DNA from: Promethearchaeota archaeon
Lineage (GTDB): Archaea; Asgardarchaeota; Lokiarchaeia; Sigyniarchaeales; SOKP01
Direction of reading: 5' to 3'
DNA: 64,000 nt
Assembly: GCA_019058365.1 (NCBI GenBank)
Contig: JAHPZE010000002.1
Location: forward strand, 96,001-160,000
Shown here: one piece after another, positions 28,732-36,699 of the stretch
How the letters are laid out: every line of letters starts with the position of its first letter
Numbering within the stretch: position 1 is the first letter of the stretch
Position numbers and translations under genes: made by a program
The notes under the pieces: generated by a model
Databases searched by the model: none
What the model saw: only the letters and a program-made list of their open reading frames with translations
Told to the model about the DNA's origin: nothing

Positions 28732-29916
28732 CTATCCTTTCTTTAGTAAGCCCTTATAAATGACTATATAATTTTTTATACTAATAATTTTAGGATTTTT
28801 CCTATAATTTGACGGAATAGGAGCATTACATCTAGAACAAAGACGAGAGCTTCTAAGCCAATCTTTGAATTCATCTGCATGAGCGGGATATCTACAATTT
28901 GGACATAAAATTATTCCTCTACCATTATCCTTAGGACTTTCAGGCAATCTAAAACAAAATATACATTTAAAATCGTCTATTGATAAATTGGCTGCCTTTG
29001 GTCTGTATAACTTAAAATTTATATGCTTTATGGTACTTTCAGTACTTCTAATTGGTCGACCTGTTTTACTACTACTTATTGTCCTAGTAGTTGTTTTGAC
29101 TCTAGAACTTCTTGATTGTATATTTGCATTAGGTGTTGATCTTGATGAATGAGATACTGATCTTGAAGTACGAGACACTGTTCTAGTTGAGGGTGTCGGA
29201 GTTGATCGCATTGGGCTGCGACTACTTTCAGTGCGTCGATTAGGAGACAATAAATCATTTAATCTACTTGTGCGGCTTGCTATATAGTCTCTAGTTAATC
29301 GGGGTAATTGGTGTCGAGCTCCAAAAAATCCATAAATAATTATTATTAATATACTTCCAATTAGCAATAATAAAAGATTTAGATCAATTAAAAAATGAAT
29401 AGGTATTAATAAAGATTCATAGAAATCAATAAGTGAATAGAAACTTATCCAATAAACAATTATGAAAAATAAAATTGAAAATCCTAAAATATACCCAAAC
29501 TTCCGGGCATTTACTGATTTTATGCCAAAATAAATTACATTATATTTTCGAAAACAACGATATAAAGATATTGAACCATATAATACATAAGGAAATCCAA
29601 ATAAAATACTCCACCAACTTAAATATAAATCTGAGCTTATAAGAAGATTTTCTCCTAATAAACCAGTAAAATTTCCCCAGATTGAATAAAATATACCAAT
29701 AAAAACAGGACCAACAGTAAAAAATGCAGTATTGTGAGGACTTCGATATTCACGATATTGTTTAATATTTTTTAAAACTTTGAAAGAAAAAATTAACCAT
29801 ATTCCTATTAATAGCCAACTCACAAGTACATTAAAAGAATTTAGAATTGCACCATGTATTATGCCTATCAATGAAAATATCGCCAATGTTATTGCGACAG
29901 CTTTAAATTTAGGCAT
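28732..29916 (-). CDS. Multipass membrane protein with Ser/Thr/Arg-rich linker and C-terminal RING-like zinc finger (putative E3 ligase)
   Basis: About 6 TMs in residues 1-200; C-x2-C-x16-C-x2-C-x4-H-x2-E-x3-W-x6-C-x2-C; last gene of the Ubl-E1-E2-JAMM run. Confidence 0.75.
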   Translation of the reverse strand: MPKFKAVAITLAIFSLIGIIHGAILNSFNVLVSWLLIGIWLIFSFKVLKNIKQYREYRSPHNTAFFTVGPVFIGIFYSIWGNFTGLLGENLLISSDLYLSWWSILFGFPYVLYGSISLYRCFRKYNVIYFGIKSVNARKFGYILGFSILFFIIVYWISFYSLIDFYESLLIPIHFLIDLNLLLLLIGSILIIIIYGFFGARHQLPRLTRDYIASRTSRLNDLLSPNRRTESSRSPMRSTPTPSTRTVSRTSRSVSHSSRSTPNANIQSRSSRVKTTTRTISSSKTGRPIRSTESTIKHINFKLYRPKAANLSIDDFKCIFCFRLPESPKDNGRGIILCPNCRYPAHADEFKDWLRSSRLCSRCNAPIPSNYRKNPKIISIKNYIVIYKGLLKKG

Positions 29917-29944: not shown

Positions 29945-30775
29945 TTAATCTTCATCATATTCGAGGTATAATGCTTTCCCTTCAATTATAGGATTCATGA
30001 ATTTTAAAATTTCTGGAAGCATCTTAATATCTAATGATCCCTTAATTCCATATACTAAAGGATACCATGTTTTAGTTCTAAGATTTGCCGTATATATTTC
30101 AAATCCTGTGGATTTTCCATCAATTTGGTATGGATCAATAACAAGAGCAACGGACTTATCCCACAATTTTTGATATCTCGCTTGAGTGCCCATATCTTCT
30201 GCGCTTAAAAAACATCCGTAGCTCGGGTGTGAATGGTACCACCCACAGATAAATAATTTTTGTTTTTTTATATCTTGGTATGCTCTAGCATAGTTTTTAT
30301 AGTCTTTAATTTCAGCATAGACAGCTGTACCATGCCCCATTGGATAAGCATCCTCGATCTGTAAGAGACCATTATCTTTTTCTATTTTTCCTGCTAAAAG
30401 ACCTATAACTTCCACCCATTTTTCTCTTGGAATCTTAGAATTCGCATATTTAAGTGCATGACTCGCTATTTTAAGAATCGTCTTTACTGAAATATAAATT
30501 TCCTTATTGATTTTCTCTTCATCTTGAATATCAAACTCTTTTTTTTCCACAATTTCTGCTGTAGGTATCTTTGTAAGTTTTATAATAGGTTTATTAGAAG
30601 ATTTTTGTGTAAGAATTGAAGAAATTTCTTCTGTTAATTCGTCTTCTTCTAATGCAAGTTCTTCACAGATTTCATCTAGTAGTTCTTGTTTTATTTTTTC
30701 TTTTATCTTCCTCTTAATTGTATCTTTGATTGATTTTTTACCTGATTCTTTAGTGTCCATAAATGAAATCACCAT
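29945..30775 (-). CDS. JAMM/MPN+ metalloprotease (Rpn11/CSN5-like deconjugase)
   Basis: EVIGLL...GWYHSHPSYGCFLSAED (E-xn-HxH-x7-S-x2-D intact), ALVIDP; start overlaps the E2 stop. Confidence 0.92.
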   Translation of the reverse strand: MVISFMDTKESGKKSIKDTIKRKIKEKIKQELLDEICEELALEEDELTEEISSILTQKSSNKPIIKLTKIPTAEIVEKKEFDIQDEEKINKEIYISVKTILKIASHALKYANSKIPREKWVEVIGLLAGKIEKDNGLLQIEDAYPMGHGTAVYAEIKDYKNYARAYQDIKKQKLFICGWYHSHPSYGCFLSAEDMGTQARYQKLWDKSVALVIDPYQIDGKSTGFEIYTANLRTKTWYPLVYGIKGSLDIKMLPEILKFMNPIIEGKALYLEYDED

Positions 30776-31296
30776 TTTTTGTTTGCATACTTCTTAACAA
30801 GATTTTTTACTTTTTTCTCGAAAAATTTTGGATTTTTCATCATTTCGACTGCTGCTTTTTTATTGAAAACATCAGTAGGATTTACATATTTTCCACGTGT
30901 ATTTAACATAGCAATTATAGCTTGAACAACCGTAACCGCTGTTTTTGAAGGACTCCACCCCCCTTTTTTACCTAATAACGATGGATCTACTAAAGCTAGA
31001 CAAATATTTCTTTGGCCCTTATATTCAGATGGTTTTGGCCAAAAATTTGGATGCCAAATTGGAGTATGAAATCTAACAAAAGGAGGTTGGTTAGGATATT
31101 GAGCTGGGAATCTCAATTCTAATCTAAAAAGACCACCTGCATAAGCAGTCCCTTTGGGTCCTTTAAATGAAATTGCTAAATGATCAATACTCTTCTTTTT
31201 AGGATTAAATGGTATTAATTGAACAATACTCCCCTCTTTCAGCATTTTTTTTAATCCCGCATAATCTTGGGAAATACGACTACTTCTTATACTCAT
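30769..31296 (-). CDS. Ubiquitin-conjugating enzyme E2 (UBC fold)
   Basis: GPKGTAYAGGLF, FP..YP..PP.V.F.T.IWHPN, catalytic NICL, WSPS. Confidence 0.95.
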   Translation of the reverse strand: MSIRSSRISQDYAGLKKMLKEGSIVQLIPFNPKKKSIDHLAISFKGPKGTAYAGGLFRLELRFPAQYPNQPPFVRFHTPIWHPNFWPKPSEYKGQRNICLALVDPSLLGKKGGWSPSKTAVTVVQAIIAMLNTRGKYVNPTDVFNKKAAVEMMKNPKFFEKKVKNLVKKYANKKW

Positions 31297-31371: not shown

Positions 31372-32637
31372 TTAATTTAAAACCGTTTTTTGATTCAAAT
31401 TTTGTTTTATTTTTAAGGTTACAAAAATTTCTCCACCTTTAAACCCTACAGCTGTCATAAGTTCGCAATTTCTTAAACCATTTTCAATTGGATTCTTTTC
31501 TAAATCAACTATCATAATATCATTGAAATCCAGTAAAGTTAGAATTGGTTCAGAATCTGGATCTAATTTAAATCCGTTTTTCTCCAATATTTTAATTATA
31601 TTTATACAAGGTGATTGAGATCTCAATTTTATAGATACCCGGCGAACGTCTTTACCACATTGAGAACATTCTGGATTTCTTTTTTTTTCAATATGGTAAA
31701 ATTTCATTGTAATTGCATTATAGATCACATAATTTCTAATAGGTTCACCTAATCCTTTATGTCCTTTTTTCCAATGAAGAATTTTGGTGGTTTCATGTGA
31801 TTGTAATGCAGAAATAACCGCATTTATAGTTATTATTCCAGGATCGTGTCTATCAATGATTTTCACAATATCATCCTTAGTATATTCAGGAAAGAAATTA
31901 TACTTGGTCACTAGTTCATTTGCAACCTTTTGAATGAATTTAATATCATTTATATTTTTTGGATTTGGATCTCTATCAAACTTTTCTCTAAATGCCATAT
32001 CTCCTTTAAAAACACAATGGATCCTTTTTCGAGGGATTCCAACCACAGTACAAGCAGCCATTTCATCAGTTTCTCCTACGGGTAATGGATTGCATTCATA
32101 ACAAGCATTTTTATAGGGGAAAACTGTATATACATGACCATGATAACCTGATACTCCTCCATCTACTAATGGCTTTCTAAATCTTATACACTGTGCATTT
32201 AAATTTAGGCGTGCATTCATCGAATCAAGACCACCAATAACAACATCCGCAGCTTGGTATAGTGCTGGATTCAAACGTTCTAGAGAAGTATGGTATCCCT
32301 TAACAATAATATTAGGATTAATTTCTTTTAACTTTCGAGCTGCAACAACTGCCTTAGGTTCTCCAATCTTCGCTCCCGTAAAAAGAACTTGACGGTTTAA
32401 GTTAGAATGTTCAATAATGTCTAAATCAATAAGATCAAGGTGACCAACACCGAGCATAGCTAAGTTTTTAGCGATTTCACAACCTAAACCTCCAACCCCA
32501 ACTATAAGAACTCTTGAATTCTTTACCACTTTCTGGGACCATCCCTCCAAACGAAATTGGCGGTCATAAAGGTCTCTCTCTTCCACTGATAATTCTTTTG
32601 CGAAAAAATCTGTATCCTTATCCACTATTATCACCAT
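31372..32637 (-). CDS. Ubiquitin-like activating enzyme E1 (ThiF adenylation domain, catalytic-Cys insert, probable C-terminal UFD)
   Basis: YDRQ, GVGGLG, SNLNRQ, CYEC and CSQC Zn pair, AACTVVGIPRKRIHC matching the Uba2/Uba3-type CT...P..HC motif. Confidence 0.93.
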   Translation of the reverse strand: MVIIVDKDTDFFAKELSVEERDLYDRQFRLEGWSQKVVKNSRVLIVGVGGLGCEIAKNLAMLGVGHLDLIDLDIIEHSNLNRQVLFTGAKIGEPKAVVAARKLKEINPNIIVKGYHTSLERLNPALYQAADVVIGGLDSMNARLNLNAQCIRFRKPLVDGGVSGYHGHVYTVFPYKNACYECNPLPVGETDEMAACTVVGIPRKRIHCVFKGDMAFREKFDRDPNPKNINDIKFIQKVANELVTKYNFFPEYTKDDIVKIIDRHDPGIITINAVISALQSHETTKILHWKKGHKGLGEPIRNYVIYNAITMKFYHIEKKRNPECSQCGKDVRRVSIKLRSQSPCINIIKILEKNGFKLDPDSEPILTLLDFNDIMIVDLEKNPIENGLRNCELMTAVGFKGGEIFVTLKIKQNLNQKTVLN

Positions 32638-32716
32638 TAATTTTTACAAAAAAAATAAAAAAAATTGAAGGGCTAAATGCCCTTATATTATATTTTATGA
32701 AGAAAGTTTTATAAGT

Positions 32717-33049
32717 CTACCCAGCCGTACTGGCGGGGATTAATAGAATATCATCACCATCATTTAAATCATAGTCGCTTAGGGAACTATTTTCATCCAT
32801 AGTAACTCCTCCACTAGAAATATGGAAATCATTAGGATCAAGACCATATAAATTTCCTAATGTTTGTTTAATGTCTCTTACTGGATTACTGTCATTTACC
32901 GTTAACTTCTCTTTTTTTTCGCCAGGACCAATTGTTGACATAAAATATAAAGTCAATTTCTTTCCTGCAGAAGGAATTTTACTTGCAGGAGTTTTAGATT
33001 TTACAGGTTCATTTACACCTAAATCTTCATCAAATTCATCAAAACTCAT
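32717..33049 (-). CDS. Ubiquitin-like modifier 1 (beta-grasp; N-terminal extension; ends STAG)
   Basis: V.DIK...L...G..MDE..SLSDY.L.DGD.I.L ubiquitin pattern; first gene of the E1-E2-JAMM run. Confidence 0.85.
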   Translation of the reverse strand: MSFDEFDEDLGVNEPVKSKTPASKIPSAGKKLTLYFMSTIGPGEKKEKLTVNDSNPVRDIKQTLGNLYGLDPNDFHISSGGVTMDENSSLSDYDLNDGDDILLIPASTAG

Positions 33050-33318
33050 TCATTTCACTTCTCTTTTTTTTTTAATTTCTAATTTTTATTATACTTAATA
33101 AAATGGCGTTAAAAAGATATTATAAAACCCTTTGGAATGATTTTGAAGTATTCAAGATCCTCTCCAAAAATAAAAAGGTGAAAATTAGAATTCTTAAGAA
33201 ATTATATTATAAATTGTATGAAACCTTATCAATATATATATGAATTAAAAAAAGTTGTTTTAGAGAGAATATATAATTATAAAAACCAGATAAATCGACG
33301 GAATAAAAGTAAAGGCTT

Positions 33319-33990
33319 ATGAATCCTCTGGATGATGCAGAATCTGTTGTTCTTGAATTAGTAAGGGAGTATTTAACAAAGAAAACCTTCTTTTCAATTA
33401 GAGAAATTACCTCCTATATTAGCAATAGAGTACGATACAATCCAAATATAAATGAGAATAGAATAGAGTTAGTTTTGAAGAATTTAATTAAGCGGCGTGT
33501 TATTATCCCTGGAACAAAATTAATGAAAAATAATATTATAGAACATCCTAAAAGAAATGAAATCTTCAATTTTATTAAAAAAAATCCGTCAAATATTAAT
33601 GAAATAATGAAGGGTCTAAAAATTGGCAGTAATCAAGCTTTATGGCATTTATCATGTTTAGAAAAATTTCAATTTGTTAGATCAAAACAAATCAATAATC
33701 ATAGAATGTTCTTCAAATTTGATTCAAATCCAAAGCTTGACCCATTTTACTATTATTTAAAAAAAAATATCGTTCAAGATATAATAGAATTTATGAAAGT
33801 AGAAAATAAAGCATTAAAAATCACAGAGATAGCAAATGGTTTGAAAAAGAATCATAGTACTATTAAAAAATACATAGATATTTTAATAGATTTAAAATTA
33901 ATAAAAATTGAAAAAGAAACAAATAGGAATATATTCAAATTAGATCTTAGAAAATATTCTAATGTAAGAAAATCAATTCAAGGTGAATGA
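33319..33990 (+). CDS. Tandem winged helix-turn-helix transcriptional regulator
   Basis: RNEIFNFIKKNP...WHL..LE and ITEIA..L....STI..YI..L wHTH units; divergent from the Ubl operon. Confidence 0.8.
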   Translation: MNPLDDAESVVLELVREYLTKKTFFSIREITSYISNRVRYNPNINENRIELVLKNLIKRRVIIPGTKLMKNNIIEHPKRNEIFNFIKKNPSNINEIMKGLKIGSNQALWHLSCLEKFQFVRSKQINNHRMFFKFDSNPKLDPFYYYLKKNIVQDIIEFMKVENKALKITEIANGLKKNHSTIKKYIDILIDLKLIKIEKETNRNIFKLDLRKYSNVRKSIQGE

Positions 33991-34074
33991 GATTAAAAAC
34001 TCCAATTTTATTCCAATCCCCTTTAAATTTTAAATTAAATATTATAAATTCAGAAAATAATCTAATTAAAAATC

Positions 34075-34875
34075 ATGAGAAAAAATTATAGAATTTTAAG
34101 TATTTTCACTCTTTATATAGTGTGTATTTTGTTTTATGTCTTTTTTTTCCTATATCGCATAGAAAATACACCATTATTTCTTGTTCTTACTATTGGTAGT
34201 GTTGCTGTTTTATCCACTAGTACAATTTATACAGTTTCAGTTTTACAGTCAAAAAGTAGTCCTGTCAAGACGATAAAAGAAAAAAAATATATCACAAAAC
34301 CAAAGTCAATTCAAAAGAAAACTTTCCCTATTATTGAAGATTATATTGATGCTCTACCTTCAATAGAAGACTATGTTGAATCAAATGAGTCCTATAAAGA
34401 TATGCCAATTATTGATAAATATATTTTTTCGATCTTAAGTCAGGAAGAATTAAATAAAATTGACTTGTTAGAGTTATCAAAAATGGACAAGATATTGTTT
34501 ATTAGAGAAATGATTTACTATGATCCAAATGAGAGAAAAGAATTAATCGAAAATATGTTAGAAAACAGAGATAATATTAATGGTGTAATACCTTATACAC
34601 CACCTAAAAGTTCTATAGGAATGGAAGATCAAATTCGTGTATATATACGATCACTTTTAGAACCTGGCGAGAAAACGAAAATTATAATAATAGATACAGC
34701 TGAATCAGCAAGAGTAGTTAAAGATAGAGTTGCACTATTATTTGATTATGAACAACAAGATTTTCTCTTATCTTCCGGAGGGATATTATTAGATGAGAAC
34801 TCACAGATAAAAGACTATAGTATTGATGATGATGATGAAATTGCTTTAATTCCCTCACGAAAAAAGAAAAATTAA
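34075..34875 (+). CDS. Membrane-anchored protein with C-terminal ubiquitin-like domain (no terminal Gly)
   Basis: Two N-terminal TMs; C-terminal PGEK.K...DF.LSSGG..LDENS.I.DY.I.D.D.I.LIP is clearly paralogous to Ubl1/Ubl2; ends PSRKKKN. Confidence 0.8.
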   Translation: MRKNYRILSIFTLYIVCILFYVFFFLYRIENTPLFLVLTIGSVAVLSTSTIYTVSVLQSKSSPVKTIKEKKYITKPKSIQKKTFPIIEDYIDALPSIEDYVESNESYKDMPIIDKYIFSILSQEELNKIDLLELSKMDKILFIREMIYYDPNERKELIENMLENRDNINGVIPYTPPKSSIGMEDQIRVYIRSLLEPGEKTKIIIIDTAESARVVKDRVALLFDYEQQDFLLSSGGILLDENSQIKDYSIDDDDEIALIPSRKKKN

Positions 34876-34922
34876 AAGTTAGGGCAGCTAATTTTAAATC
34901 CCTTTACTTATACCAGGAAGAT

Positions 34923-35348
34923 TTAGCCAGCAATACTAGCTGGAATTAAAAGTATATCCTCTCCATCAGAAATAGTATAATCGCTTAAAGGATTAATTTC
35001 ATCCATTGTTACACCACCACAAGATAAATGAAAGTCAGCAGGATCTAAACCAAATAAATTTGCAACGGTTTCTTTAATATCACCGACAAGATTTCCATCA
35101 TTAACAGTTAATTTTTGTTTTTTCTCACCCGGACCAATAGTAGACATAAAATATATTGAAATCTTCTTCCCTCCAGAAATAATTTTGGTAGTAGGAGTTT
35201 TTGTTTCAACTTCTTCTTCAAGACTCTTCTCAAAAGGTTCTTTTACATCTTCTTCTTTATTTTCTTCAAGATCTTCATCTAATTCTTCTAAATCTTCATC
35301 AAATTCTTGTTCATCAAATTCATCGTCAAATTCATTATCAAAACCCAT
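34923..35348 (-). CDS. Ubiquitin-like modifier 2 (acidic N-terminal tail; ends SIAG)
   Basis: Core matches Ubl1 at about 60 of 82 residues by manual alignment. Confidence 0.85.
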   Translation of the reverse strand: MGFDNEFDDEFDEQEFDEDLEELDEDLEENKEEDVKEPFEKSLEEEVETKTPTTKIISGGKKISIYFMSTIGPGEKKQKLTVNDGNLVGDIKETVANLFGLDPADFHLSCGGVTMDEINPLSDYTISDGEDILLIPASIAG

Positions 35349-35541: not shown

Positions 35542-36699
35542 ATGAACGACGAACCAATTCCAAAGTATCAAATTCGAGAAAAAACACCAATTGAAAAATT
35601 TGATATGATTTCTGATAAAAAATTGCTTAAAAAATTAAAAAAAGAAAGGATCAAGTTAGATAAAGAAAAGAATGAATGGGAAAAAGTTATTAACCAAATT
35701 GAAAATTACAAAGAAAATGTTGAAGATCTTGAGAAAAAAAGAAAAGAAAAAGAACTTAAAATTAAATATCTCCTTGAACAACGAGATAACTTACAGGATG
35801 AGTTAGAACGAACGAAAAATCAAATAAAACAACAGAATAGTGATTTAGCAACAAAAGATCAACAATTTAGAGAAAAAATCAGAAATAAAAATGAGGAATT
35901 GGATCAAAAAAATGCTGAATTAGAAAGATTTCAAGAAAAGTTAGATAATTTGAGAGAGGATATTGGAAATCAAAAAAAGAATCTAGAATGGGAAAAACAA
36001 AGAACAGAAAAACGAATAAAGGAAATTAAAACAAAAATTCCAGGTATGGAGAGAAGAGAAAATGCTTTAGAAAGAACTATTAATGATTTAGAGTCTAAAT
36101 TAATGGATTTAAGAAATGAAATCAAAGATTTAACTAAAGATCGAGATAATTTAAATAATGAAATTAATACTTTAAGGAGAGAAATTAATGATGAAAAAAA
36201 TCGAATTTCTGACGAAAAGAAAAAATTAAAAGAAGAAAGAGAAAAAACTCGTTACAAAAAACAAGATATTTCTCTACAATCTCGTGAAATTGATAAGAAA
36301 AAAACAGATCTGAAAAAATATAGAGATAAAGTTGAAAGTGATGTAAATAATTTGGAAAAAAGAAGACGCCAACAAGAAGCAAGATTAAAAGAATTAGAGA
36401 GAAAAGTTCCTGCTGCAGAAAACAAATATAACTCCTTAAATAGGAAAATTCCTAATTTAGAAGAAAAATTTAGAAGACTAAATAATGAATACAGACAATT
36501 AGAAAAACAAAAAGAGACCTTGGAAAGTGATAAAAATATAATTAAACGTGAAAGAGAAAAATTAGAAAAAGATAAACAACGATTTCTAAATGAAAAAAGG
36601 GCATTTGAAAGAGAAATAAGAAAGATAACAACGAAATCTCCATCAATTAAAACGAAAACACCCTCAAAAATTAATACTAAGACTCCTTCAAAATATTAA
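35542..36699 (+). CDS. Long coiled-coil protein with C-terminal TK(S/T)PS repeats
   Basis: About 330 aa of continuous charged heptad pattern, no enzyme motifs; ends TTKSPSI-KTKTPSKI-NTKTPSKY. Confidence 0.75.
   Translation: MNDEPIPKYQIREKTPIEKFDMISDKKLLKKLKKERIKLDKEKNEWEKVINQIENYKENVEDLEKKRKEKELKIKYLLEQRDNLQDELERTKNQIKQQNSDLATKDQQFREKIRNKNEELDQKNAELERFQEKLDNLREDIGNQKKNLEWEKQRTEKRIKEIKTKIPGMERRENALERTINDLESKLMDLRNEIKDLTKDRDNLNNEINTLRREINDEKNRISDEKKKLKEEREKTRYKKQDISLQSREIDKKKTDLKKYRDKVESDVNNLEKRRRQQEARLKELERKVPAAENKYNSLNRKIPNLEEKFRRLNNEYRQLEKQKETLESDKNIIKREREKLEKDKQRFLNEKRAFEREIRKITTKSPSIKTKTPSKINTKTPSKY

Follow-up and report, generated by a model that had tools for sequence, protein, structure and literature searches.

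Ubiquitin-fold proteins ending in Ala-Gly and a matching predicted tagging operon in Asgard archaea

The stretch of DNA analysed here (the window; 64,000 nucleotides, positions 96,001 to 160,000 of contig JAHPZE010000002.1) belongs to the genome of a Promethearchaeota archaeon of the class Lokiarchaeia, and positions are given in window numbering unless another contig or locus is named. On its minus strand the window encodes two paralogous ubiquitin-like (Ubl) proteins, Ubl1 (32717–33049) and Ubl2 (34923–35348), both of which end in Ala-Gly (AG) and not in Gly-Gly (GG). Ubl1 is followed on its strand by the genes of an activating enzyme (E1; 31372–32637), a conjugating enzyme (E2; 30769–31296), a Rpn11-like JAMM protease (29945–30775) and a membrane RING protein, the probable ligase (E3; 28732–29916). 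Sequence comparison across loci and genomes indicates that this is a complete AG tagging gene set, present in many Asgard lineages and separate from their GG ubiquitin and from UFM1.

Ubl1 is a 110-residue protein, predicted to be a ubiquitin-fold modifier, that matches PF00240 with 25.8 bits, above the cut-off. Its reading frame stops directly after PASTAG (GCT GGG TAG), with Ala at 32723–32725 and Gly at 32720–32722, and the core is preceded by an acidic, Lys- and Pro-rich N-terminal arm of approximately 28 residues with an SKTP motif at K19. Ubl2, a 141-residue paralogue, stops directly after PASIAG (GCT GGC TAA; Ala 34929–34931, Gly 34926–34928) and has a longer acidic arm of approximately 59 residues, with TKTP. 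A third free copy, on contig C16, ends in PASTAG and has neither an E1 nor an E2 gene beside it. An earlier note on this DNA had described the two ends and their codons, put the differences between the cores at about 22 of 82 residues and held AG to be selected and not a sequencing error. The ends, codons and coordinates are borne out, exactly 22 differences are counted in the last 82 residues, and the wider family argues for selection as well.

A pool of 319 distinct cores scoring at least 60 bits was gathered from all loci and fetched proteins, and removal of 30 cores of a membrane-anchored paralogue and one truncated core left 288 complete cores. Their C-termini, which the earlier note had proposed to collect, are not variable at this position: 287 cores end in AG, one in AA and none in GG. 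Ala and Gly are invariant across 30 aligned sequences of 45–73% identity, and AG is kept in 56 of the 56 AG representatives (80% identity), in which many surface columns are only 20–50% conserved. The independent assembly L001 has the same AG codons, and every synonymous codon of Ala and of Gly occurs among the homologues, so a sequencing error is not the origin of AG. Since Ala becomes Gly by one base change, and the third base of the Ala codon is free, the lack of GG among 288 cores speaks for selection against Gly at the second-last place. Profile alignment sets AG on Gly75-Gly76 of ubiquitin with no gap, which makes it a substitution and not the loss of a residue. Both candidate origins, sequencing error and a lost Gly, are thus ruled out by the codons and the gapless alignment, and on the sequence evidence AG is a selected, strongly conserved feature. 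Lacking a C-terminal di-Gly, the tag falls outside the canonical modifiers of the Caldiarchaeum ubiquitin (CsUb) type.

The membrane-anchored paralogue (34075–34875, plus strand) has two hydrophobic segments towards its N-terminus and, at the other end, a Ubl domain that hhalign relates to the tag family with 99.5% probability. Its tail has drifted to basic residues and holds no Gly; judged by this sequence it is not conjugatable and serves as a natural control, in which the fold is kept and AG is lost. It adjoins the operon in close relatives and is absent from the distant loci.

The predicted model of Ubl1 adopts the ubiquitin fold (predicted local distance difference test score, pLDDT, of 90) and superposes, as a predicted structure, on ubiquitin and ISG15 with Z-scores of 13–14.6 and root mean square deviations of 1.2–2 Å over 75–79 residues. 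The best fold matches among those listed are Caldiarchaeum ubiquitin (the top match in Foldseek), ubiquitin, ISG15 and NEDD8; chains of UFM1 and of the bacterial modifier BilA are not among the 50 listed matches of three fold searches, and no BilA chain is among the listed sequence matches. All 30 aligned members match PF00240, and the tag-family profile aligns to ubiquitin repeats with 98.8% probability over 78 columns. ESM Atlas matches of the tag are solely ubiquitin-family or unnamed clusters. The tags have no match in NCBIfam, nor in PADLOC, the library of which dates from 2023 and may lack Bil models. Sequence and model thus indicate that the tag is a ubiquitin-family protein that has a single terminal Gly in common with UFM1.

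Other assignments were considered and rejected. SUMO is ruled out by the AG end and by a Rad60-SLD/SUMO profile match that reaches at most 19.8 bits for the window proteins against a cut-off of 23.8. The group of SAMP, MoaD, ThiS and Urm1, which have GG ends and work with an E1 only, is ruled out by the AG end and by the co-occurring dedicated E2; ThiS gives a sub-threshold match in 6 of the 30 members. The earlier note had placed the tail in register with the MoaD/SAMP type. The Pro six residues from the tag end is indeed in register with the SAMP/MoaD-like protein of this genome, encoded by a separate gene (C34:201667–201882), and the residue after it is variable (Ala in 34%). The tag tail is equally in register with that of ubiquitin, so that the register does not point to MoaD/SAMP.

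Nor is the tag at all likely to be the Asgard orthologue or ancestor of UFM1, the least probable of the alternatives weighed here and one that is largely refuted. The two have in common the single terminal Gly and the Pro six residues from the end; the first hairpin of the tag is, as would suit such an origin, three residues longer, and the N-terminal half of the tag profile (57 columns only) aligns with 88% probability to an Asgard UFM1-like family, A2. The profile and fold matches of the tag, in contrast, go to ubiquitin, PF03671 (UFM1) is matched by none of the 30 members at E ≤ 1, and the operon E1 is far from UBA5 (E-value of 6e-16, against 2e-38 for UBA2). Moreover, the family that does match UFM1 is a different one, and some genomes hold both. 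Reached by the PF03671 scan, A2 (alignment of L160–L190; loci L144:1390–1701 and L168:1405–1665) serves as the positive control for a UFM1 profile match: it consists of single-Gly Ubls ending in RGVVG, RGIVG or DLLG, the 13 best PDB matches of its profile are UFM1 chains (E-values of 3e-4 to 2e-3), and its genes adjoin short E1s that lack the Cys-domain insert and form their own group in the E1 tree. Asgard UFM1 homologues have been published (PMC12962969), and A2 may be the family described there. With the queries used, A2 was not found in the source genome. In several genomes an A2 domain is fused to the N-terminus of a protein of approximately 270 residues.

The operon enzymes retain their catalytic signatures. 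The E1 is of the UBA2/UBA1/UBA3 type (E-values of 1e-35 to 1e-38, with UBA2 narrowly best at 2e-38) and has the Gly loop, SNLNRQ, Asp138, two CxxC zinc pairs and the catalytic Cys196; it carries a Cys-domain insert, unlike the minimal E1s of the UBA5 type. The E2 is a canonical UBC protein (HPN at 82–84, catalytic Cys99) that resembles Ubc9 no more than it does other E2s; from genome to genome, its single-copy orthologue goes together with the AG Ubl. The JAMM protease keeps Glu122, His181, His183 and Asp194, and its best solved relative is Caldiarchaeum Rpn11. The probable E3 comprises at least four hydrophobic segments, a Ser-, Thr- and Arg-rich linker and a C-terminal finger, probably a RING variant, with putative ligands C318, C321, C338, C341, H346, E349, C360 and C363, plus W353; its seven Cys/His ligands and the Trp expected to bind the E2 are invariant, and its profile matches are to RNF24 (E-value of 3e-5) and RNF4.

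These features bear on an alternative in which the tag, like Atg8, is attached to an amine-bearing membrane lipid and not to protein lysines. A single terminal Gly as in Atg8 would suit such a role, as would the membrane location of the probable E3 and of one paralogue. Against it stand the E1, which is far closer to UBA2, UBA1 and UBA3 (E-value of about 1e-38) than to Atg7 (E-value of 3e-10), the canonical E2 with its HPN motif, and a fold that best matches ubiquitin, ISG15 and NEDD8; lipidation is accordingly quite improbable.

The order Ubl-E1-E2-JAMM-RING is found in 19 of the 19 distant loci that hold the operon, the same order recurs on contigs with tags labelled Hodarchaeales and Helarchaeota, and further tag members cluster with proteins labelled Heimdallarchaeaceae. 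Key residues of all four enzymes are conserved across the loci compared. The records of the closest loci are labelled mostly Promethearchaeota or Promethearchaeia, which makes the host a Loki-type Asgard archaeon. Among L001–L080, several DZ, H, QM and TM records bear the labels Hodarchaeota, Hermodarchaeota, Odinarchaeota or Thorarchaeota although their tags are 83–94% identical to those of the window, and these labels look wrong.

Of 301 Asgard genomes, 123 hold the tag and 115 the E2 orthologue, and the nine families represented are the same for both. Comparison of the two genome lists gives both in 112, the tag only in 11 (two of them weak matches from outside the family), the E2 only in 3 and neither in 175, counts that overstate the case because related genomes are not independent. 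In the order of the window's organism, 59 of the 63 high-completeness genomes hold the tag. Five genomes of 92–100% completeness, one of them closed (4.4 Mb), lack the tag together with the E1 and E2 orthologues and keep a GG Ubl and another E1.

The source genome itself encodes a stand-alone GG Ubl (C12:107491–107748, L132) that ends in TQAGG and is 65–100% identical across the class. It has no E1 or E2 gene near, and is probably served by the second E1 (C45:6279–7877) and second E2 (C45:4371–4919) of the genome. That the operon enzymes serve such a GG Ubl, while the AG tail binds a partner and is never activated, as in a non-covalent Ubl of the Hub1/UBL5 kind, is suggested by this lack of neighbouring enzymes. 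This option is marginally less probable even than lipidation: the tag-less genomes are also without this E1 and E2, yet keep the GG Ubl and another E1, and the variable tails and polyproteins described below mark the AG junction as a processing site.

In the E1 tree, which is midpoint-rooted and has long branches, 31 AG-linked E1s group in a single clade (97/97), distinct from the GG-linked and UFM1-linked E1s, and the separation holds even for GG-linked E1s from G086, a genome with both systems. The clade has two branches, Loki/Hel-like and Hod/Heimdall-like, which fits vertical descent. With its own E1 clade, its co-presence with the E2 and a separate GG Ubl, E1 and E2, the AG modifier looks orthogonal, as the earlier note had proposed.

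A conjugating but non-orthogonal tag has to be weighed here, in which AG is a frozen ancestral feature, either tail is accepted by the operon E1 and by the GG-type E1s alike, and the body of the tag confers the specificity. Eukaryotic E1 specificity rests largely on residue 72 and on contacts with the body, which would favour this explanation, and no tail-pocket signature was found in the AG-linked E1s. Caldiarchaeum Rpn11 still cuts a Gly77Ala precursor, although much more slowly (PMC6043591); the residual cutting is in keeping with shared enzymes, and the slowness makes insulation from GG enzymes plausible. The absence of GG, reachable by one base, points to selection against Gly and not to a frozen tail, and we regard the non-orthogonal alternative as unlikely, if the strongest of the four.

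All three free copies in the source genome end at AG, so maturation is not needed there. Across the family, 224 of the 287 AG cores end at AG, 60 continue into an extension and 3 are AG junctions inside head-to-tail precursors. The 60 pro-tails are variable, with lengths of 1–15 residues and 17 different first residues. The precursors, from separate samples, comprise three units (P0122; L157 and L158) and two units (P0123; L159), joined right after AG; a further head-to-tail AG-tag polyprotein precursor is P0196. By analogy, such precursors are the archaeal counterpart of polyubiquitin genes. A fixed AG with an unconstrained tail behind it is what a processing site looks like, and BilA shows the same pattern. 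The earlier note had suggested that the modifier is made in mature form and that the JAMM acts only as a deconjugase; this holds for the present genome but fails for the family, in which the 60 pro-tailed cores and the polyproteins need cutting after AG.

Several larger proteins also finish in a Ubl domain with an intact AG end: HerA-like ATPases, a roadblock protein, a CDC48N-VWA protein and CxxC proteins of approximately 300 residues (the fusions are L117:9072–10814, L116:1895–3715, P0169, P0162, P0236 and P0178–P0185). The AG-tagged HerA-like ATPase, roadblock and CDC48N-VWA proteins could be ligated whole.

Two further genes of the locus lie on the plus strand, each transcribed away from a tag gene: a winged helix-turn-helix protein (33319–33990, beside Ubl1), which is a probable regulator, and a coiled-coil protein (35542–36699, beside Ubl2) with six K-[TIV]-P motifs, which is a candidate substrate or docking partner. 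The acidic arm of the tag itself carries [ST]-K-[TV]-P in 226 of 256 free members. Homologues of the coiled-coil protein have this same motif in 49 of 54 cases, with 88 copies against 0.24 in shuffles, in counts from homologues that are not independent. Among the 3662 open reading frames of the genome this protein has the top enrichment in K-[TIV]-P (P of about 1e-7); genome-wide the motif is not enriched, and a search of the ESM Atlas with the coiled-coil protein gave nothing at ≥0.9. Upstream neighbours of different appearance in Hodarchaeales-like and Heimdallarchaeaceae-like loci also carry K-[TIV]-P, the latter often as K-I-P or K-V-P, so Lys and Pro seem to matter rather than Thr. By analogy with that of SUMO, K-[TIV]-P is a possible acceptor or docking motif; a pure phosphorylation site at K-T-P is less likely, since Ile or Val often takes the place of Thr in the Heimdallarchaeaceae neighbours. 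Lys-rich disordered or small helical proteins with the motif, transcribed away from the tag, are encoded upstream in L230–L232, at L125:7349–7762 and at L126:6454–6876.

Both tags are free of Lys and Arg over their last 49 residues. The remnant left by trypsin is therefore 49 residues long, and di-Gly enrichment would miss these tags regardless of which residue stands second-last. The earlier note had rightly expected di-Gly proteomics to miss the tag, and the length of the remnant is the main reason.

Smaller features of the locus include an overlap of the E2 stop with the JAMM start (30769–30775), which suggests translational coupling, and, between the Ubl1 and E1 genes (32668–32684), a perfect hairpin with a T-run, which might reduce the output of the enzymes compared with that of the tag, although such hits are at chance level here; a promoter and terminator scan likewise gave hits no better than chance. 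Some members of the family to which the window's organism belongs have a second RING-like finger, with Cys as the sixth ligand, close to the operon (L128:8615–8842, L129:5145–5369 and L130:8435–8677).

Among the closest described systems, the ubiquitin cascades of archaea use GG. The Caldiarchaeum subterraneum ubiquitylation operon comprises ubiquitin, E1, E2, a small RING protein and Rpn11 (PMC5654768, PMC6043591), and the Asgard cascade rebuilt so far, from Helarchaeia, uses GG as well (10.1101/2023.07.25.550441). The AG operon has in common with these systems the five-part set, the ubiquitin fold, the UBA2/3-like E1, the Rpn11-like JAMM and, in some members, pro-peptides. It differs from them in the AG end, the acidic N-terminal arm, the one to three tag paralogues, the fusion of the RING to a multi-pass membrane domain and the lack of ESCRT genes seen at the locus, and from the Asgard GG systems also in its separate E1 clade. 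We infer that it works like the Caldiarchaeum operon but departs from it in the di-Gly end.

The AG end alone has a precedent, bacterial BilA being the nearest one with bench data, which limits the surprise. BilA of E. aridi ends in Val-Ala-Gly after trimming and forms isopeptides through an E1 and an E2, seen as an Ala-Gly remnant (10.1101/2023.09.26.559546); AG is therefore chemically competent and not unique. The bacterial type II BilABCD system resembles the AG operon in conjugation through Ala-Gly, which is predicted for the tag, in its E1/E2 cascade and in Ubls with extra N-terminal domains. Behind its single conserved Gly, BilA carries a variable tail that is removed by a JAMM, much as the pro-tails of the tag would be. 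Unlike the AG operon, BilABCD is a phage-defence system and has no RING protein; in the tag, unlike BilA, the Ala itself is invariant, and the operon is single-copy at a stable locus across Asgard families. Similarities to SUMO comprise the disordered N-terminal arm with a lysine motif, the lack of basic residues near the C-terminus and UBA2 as the narrowly best E1 match; SUMO differs in its GG end and its psi-K-x-E motif (K-[TIV]-P here), and the tag gives only sub-threshold Rad60-SLD matches. In the literature searched, which covers few subscription journals, no paper was found on the AG family or on Asgard ubiquitin-like proteins with a single glycine, and the bench work found on archaeal ubiquitin concerns GG systems only.

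From sequence and predicted structure we infer that the two window proteins, as paralogues, serve as modifiers in an Asgard cascade of their own, built on a single terminal Gly after Ala. The operon E1 would adenylate this Gly and hand the tag over as a thioester from its Cys196 to Cys99 of the E2; the membrane RING protein would direct it to lysines of substrates on the inner side of the membrane; and the JAMM would take the tag off and, in relatives, also trim pro-tails and split polyproteins. We consider this joint reading, from the thioester relay and RING-directed transfer to lysines to a JAMM that both matures and removes the tag, to be probable. Several observations weigh against it or against its insulation: the sixth RING ligand is Glu; the RING model matches mostly RING and U-box folds, but modestly (best E-value of 2e-3 in Foldseek); 29 columns differ between AG- and GG-linked E1s, with no E1 or JAMM residue tied to the reading of Ala; P0199 continues as AG-G, which blurs the cut site there; and the co-occurrence counts are inflated by relatedness. 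That Ala at the second-last place helps to exclude the tag from co-resident GG pathways is a weaker proposal. More speculatively, K-[TIV]-P in disordered segments may be the acceptor, with tag chains formed through the tag's own arm, as in SUMO, and the coiled-coil neighbour may be a natural substrate.

The five-gene set can be rebuilt in vitro, with a candidate substrate and motif already named, and it is a natural case in which the reading of the second-last residue by E1 and JAMM enzymes can be tested. On a tentative and distinctly less probable extension of this reading, the ancestor of Lokiarchaeia and Heimdallarchaeia, Hodarchaeales included, would have run, beside GG ubiquitin, SAMP and UFM1, an insulated SUMO-like AG cascade with its own E1, E2 and JAMM, a membrane RING protein, a K-[TIV]-P acceptor and arm chains, polyproteins, and tag-bearing enzymes (HerA-like ATPase, roadblock and CDC48N-VWA) ligated to targets. 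Should the cascade itself operate as proposed, several insulated modifier pathways would have existed in Asgard archaea, genomes labelled Hodarchaeales among them, before eukaryotes, and so would a multi-pass RING protein that directs tagging at the membrane.

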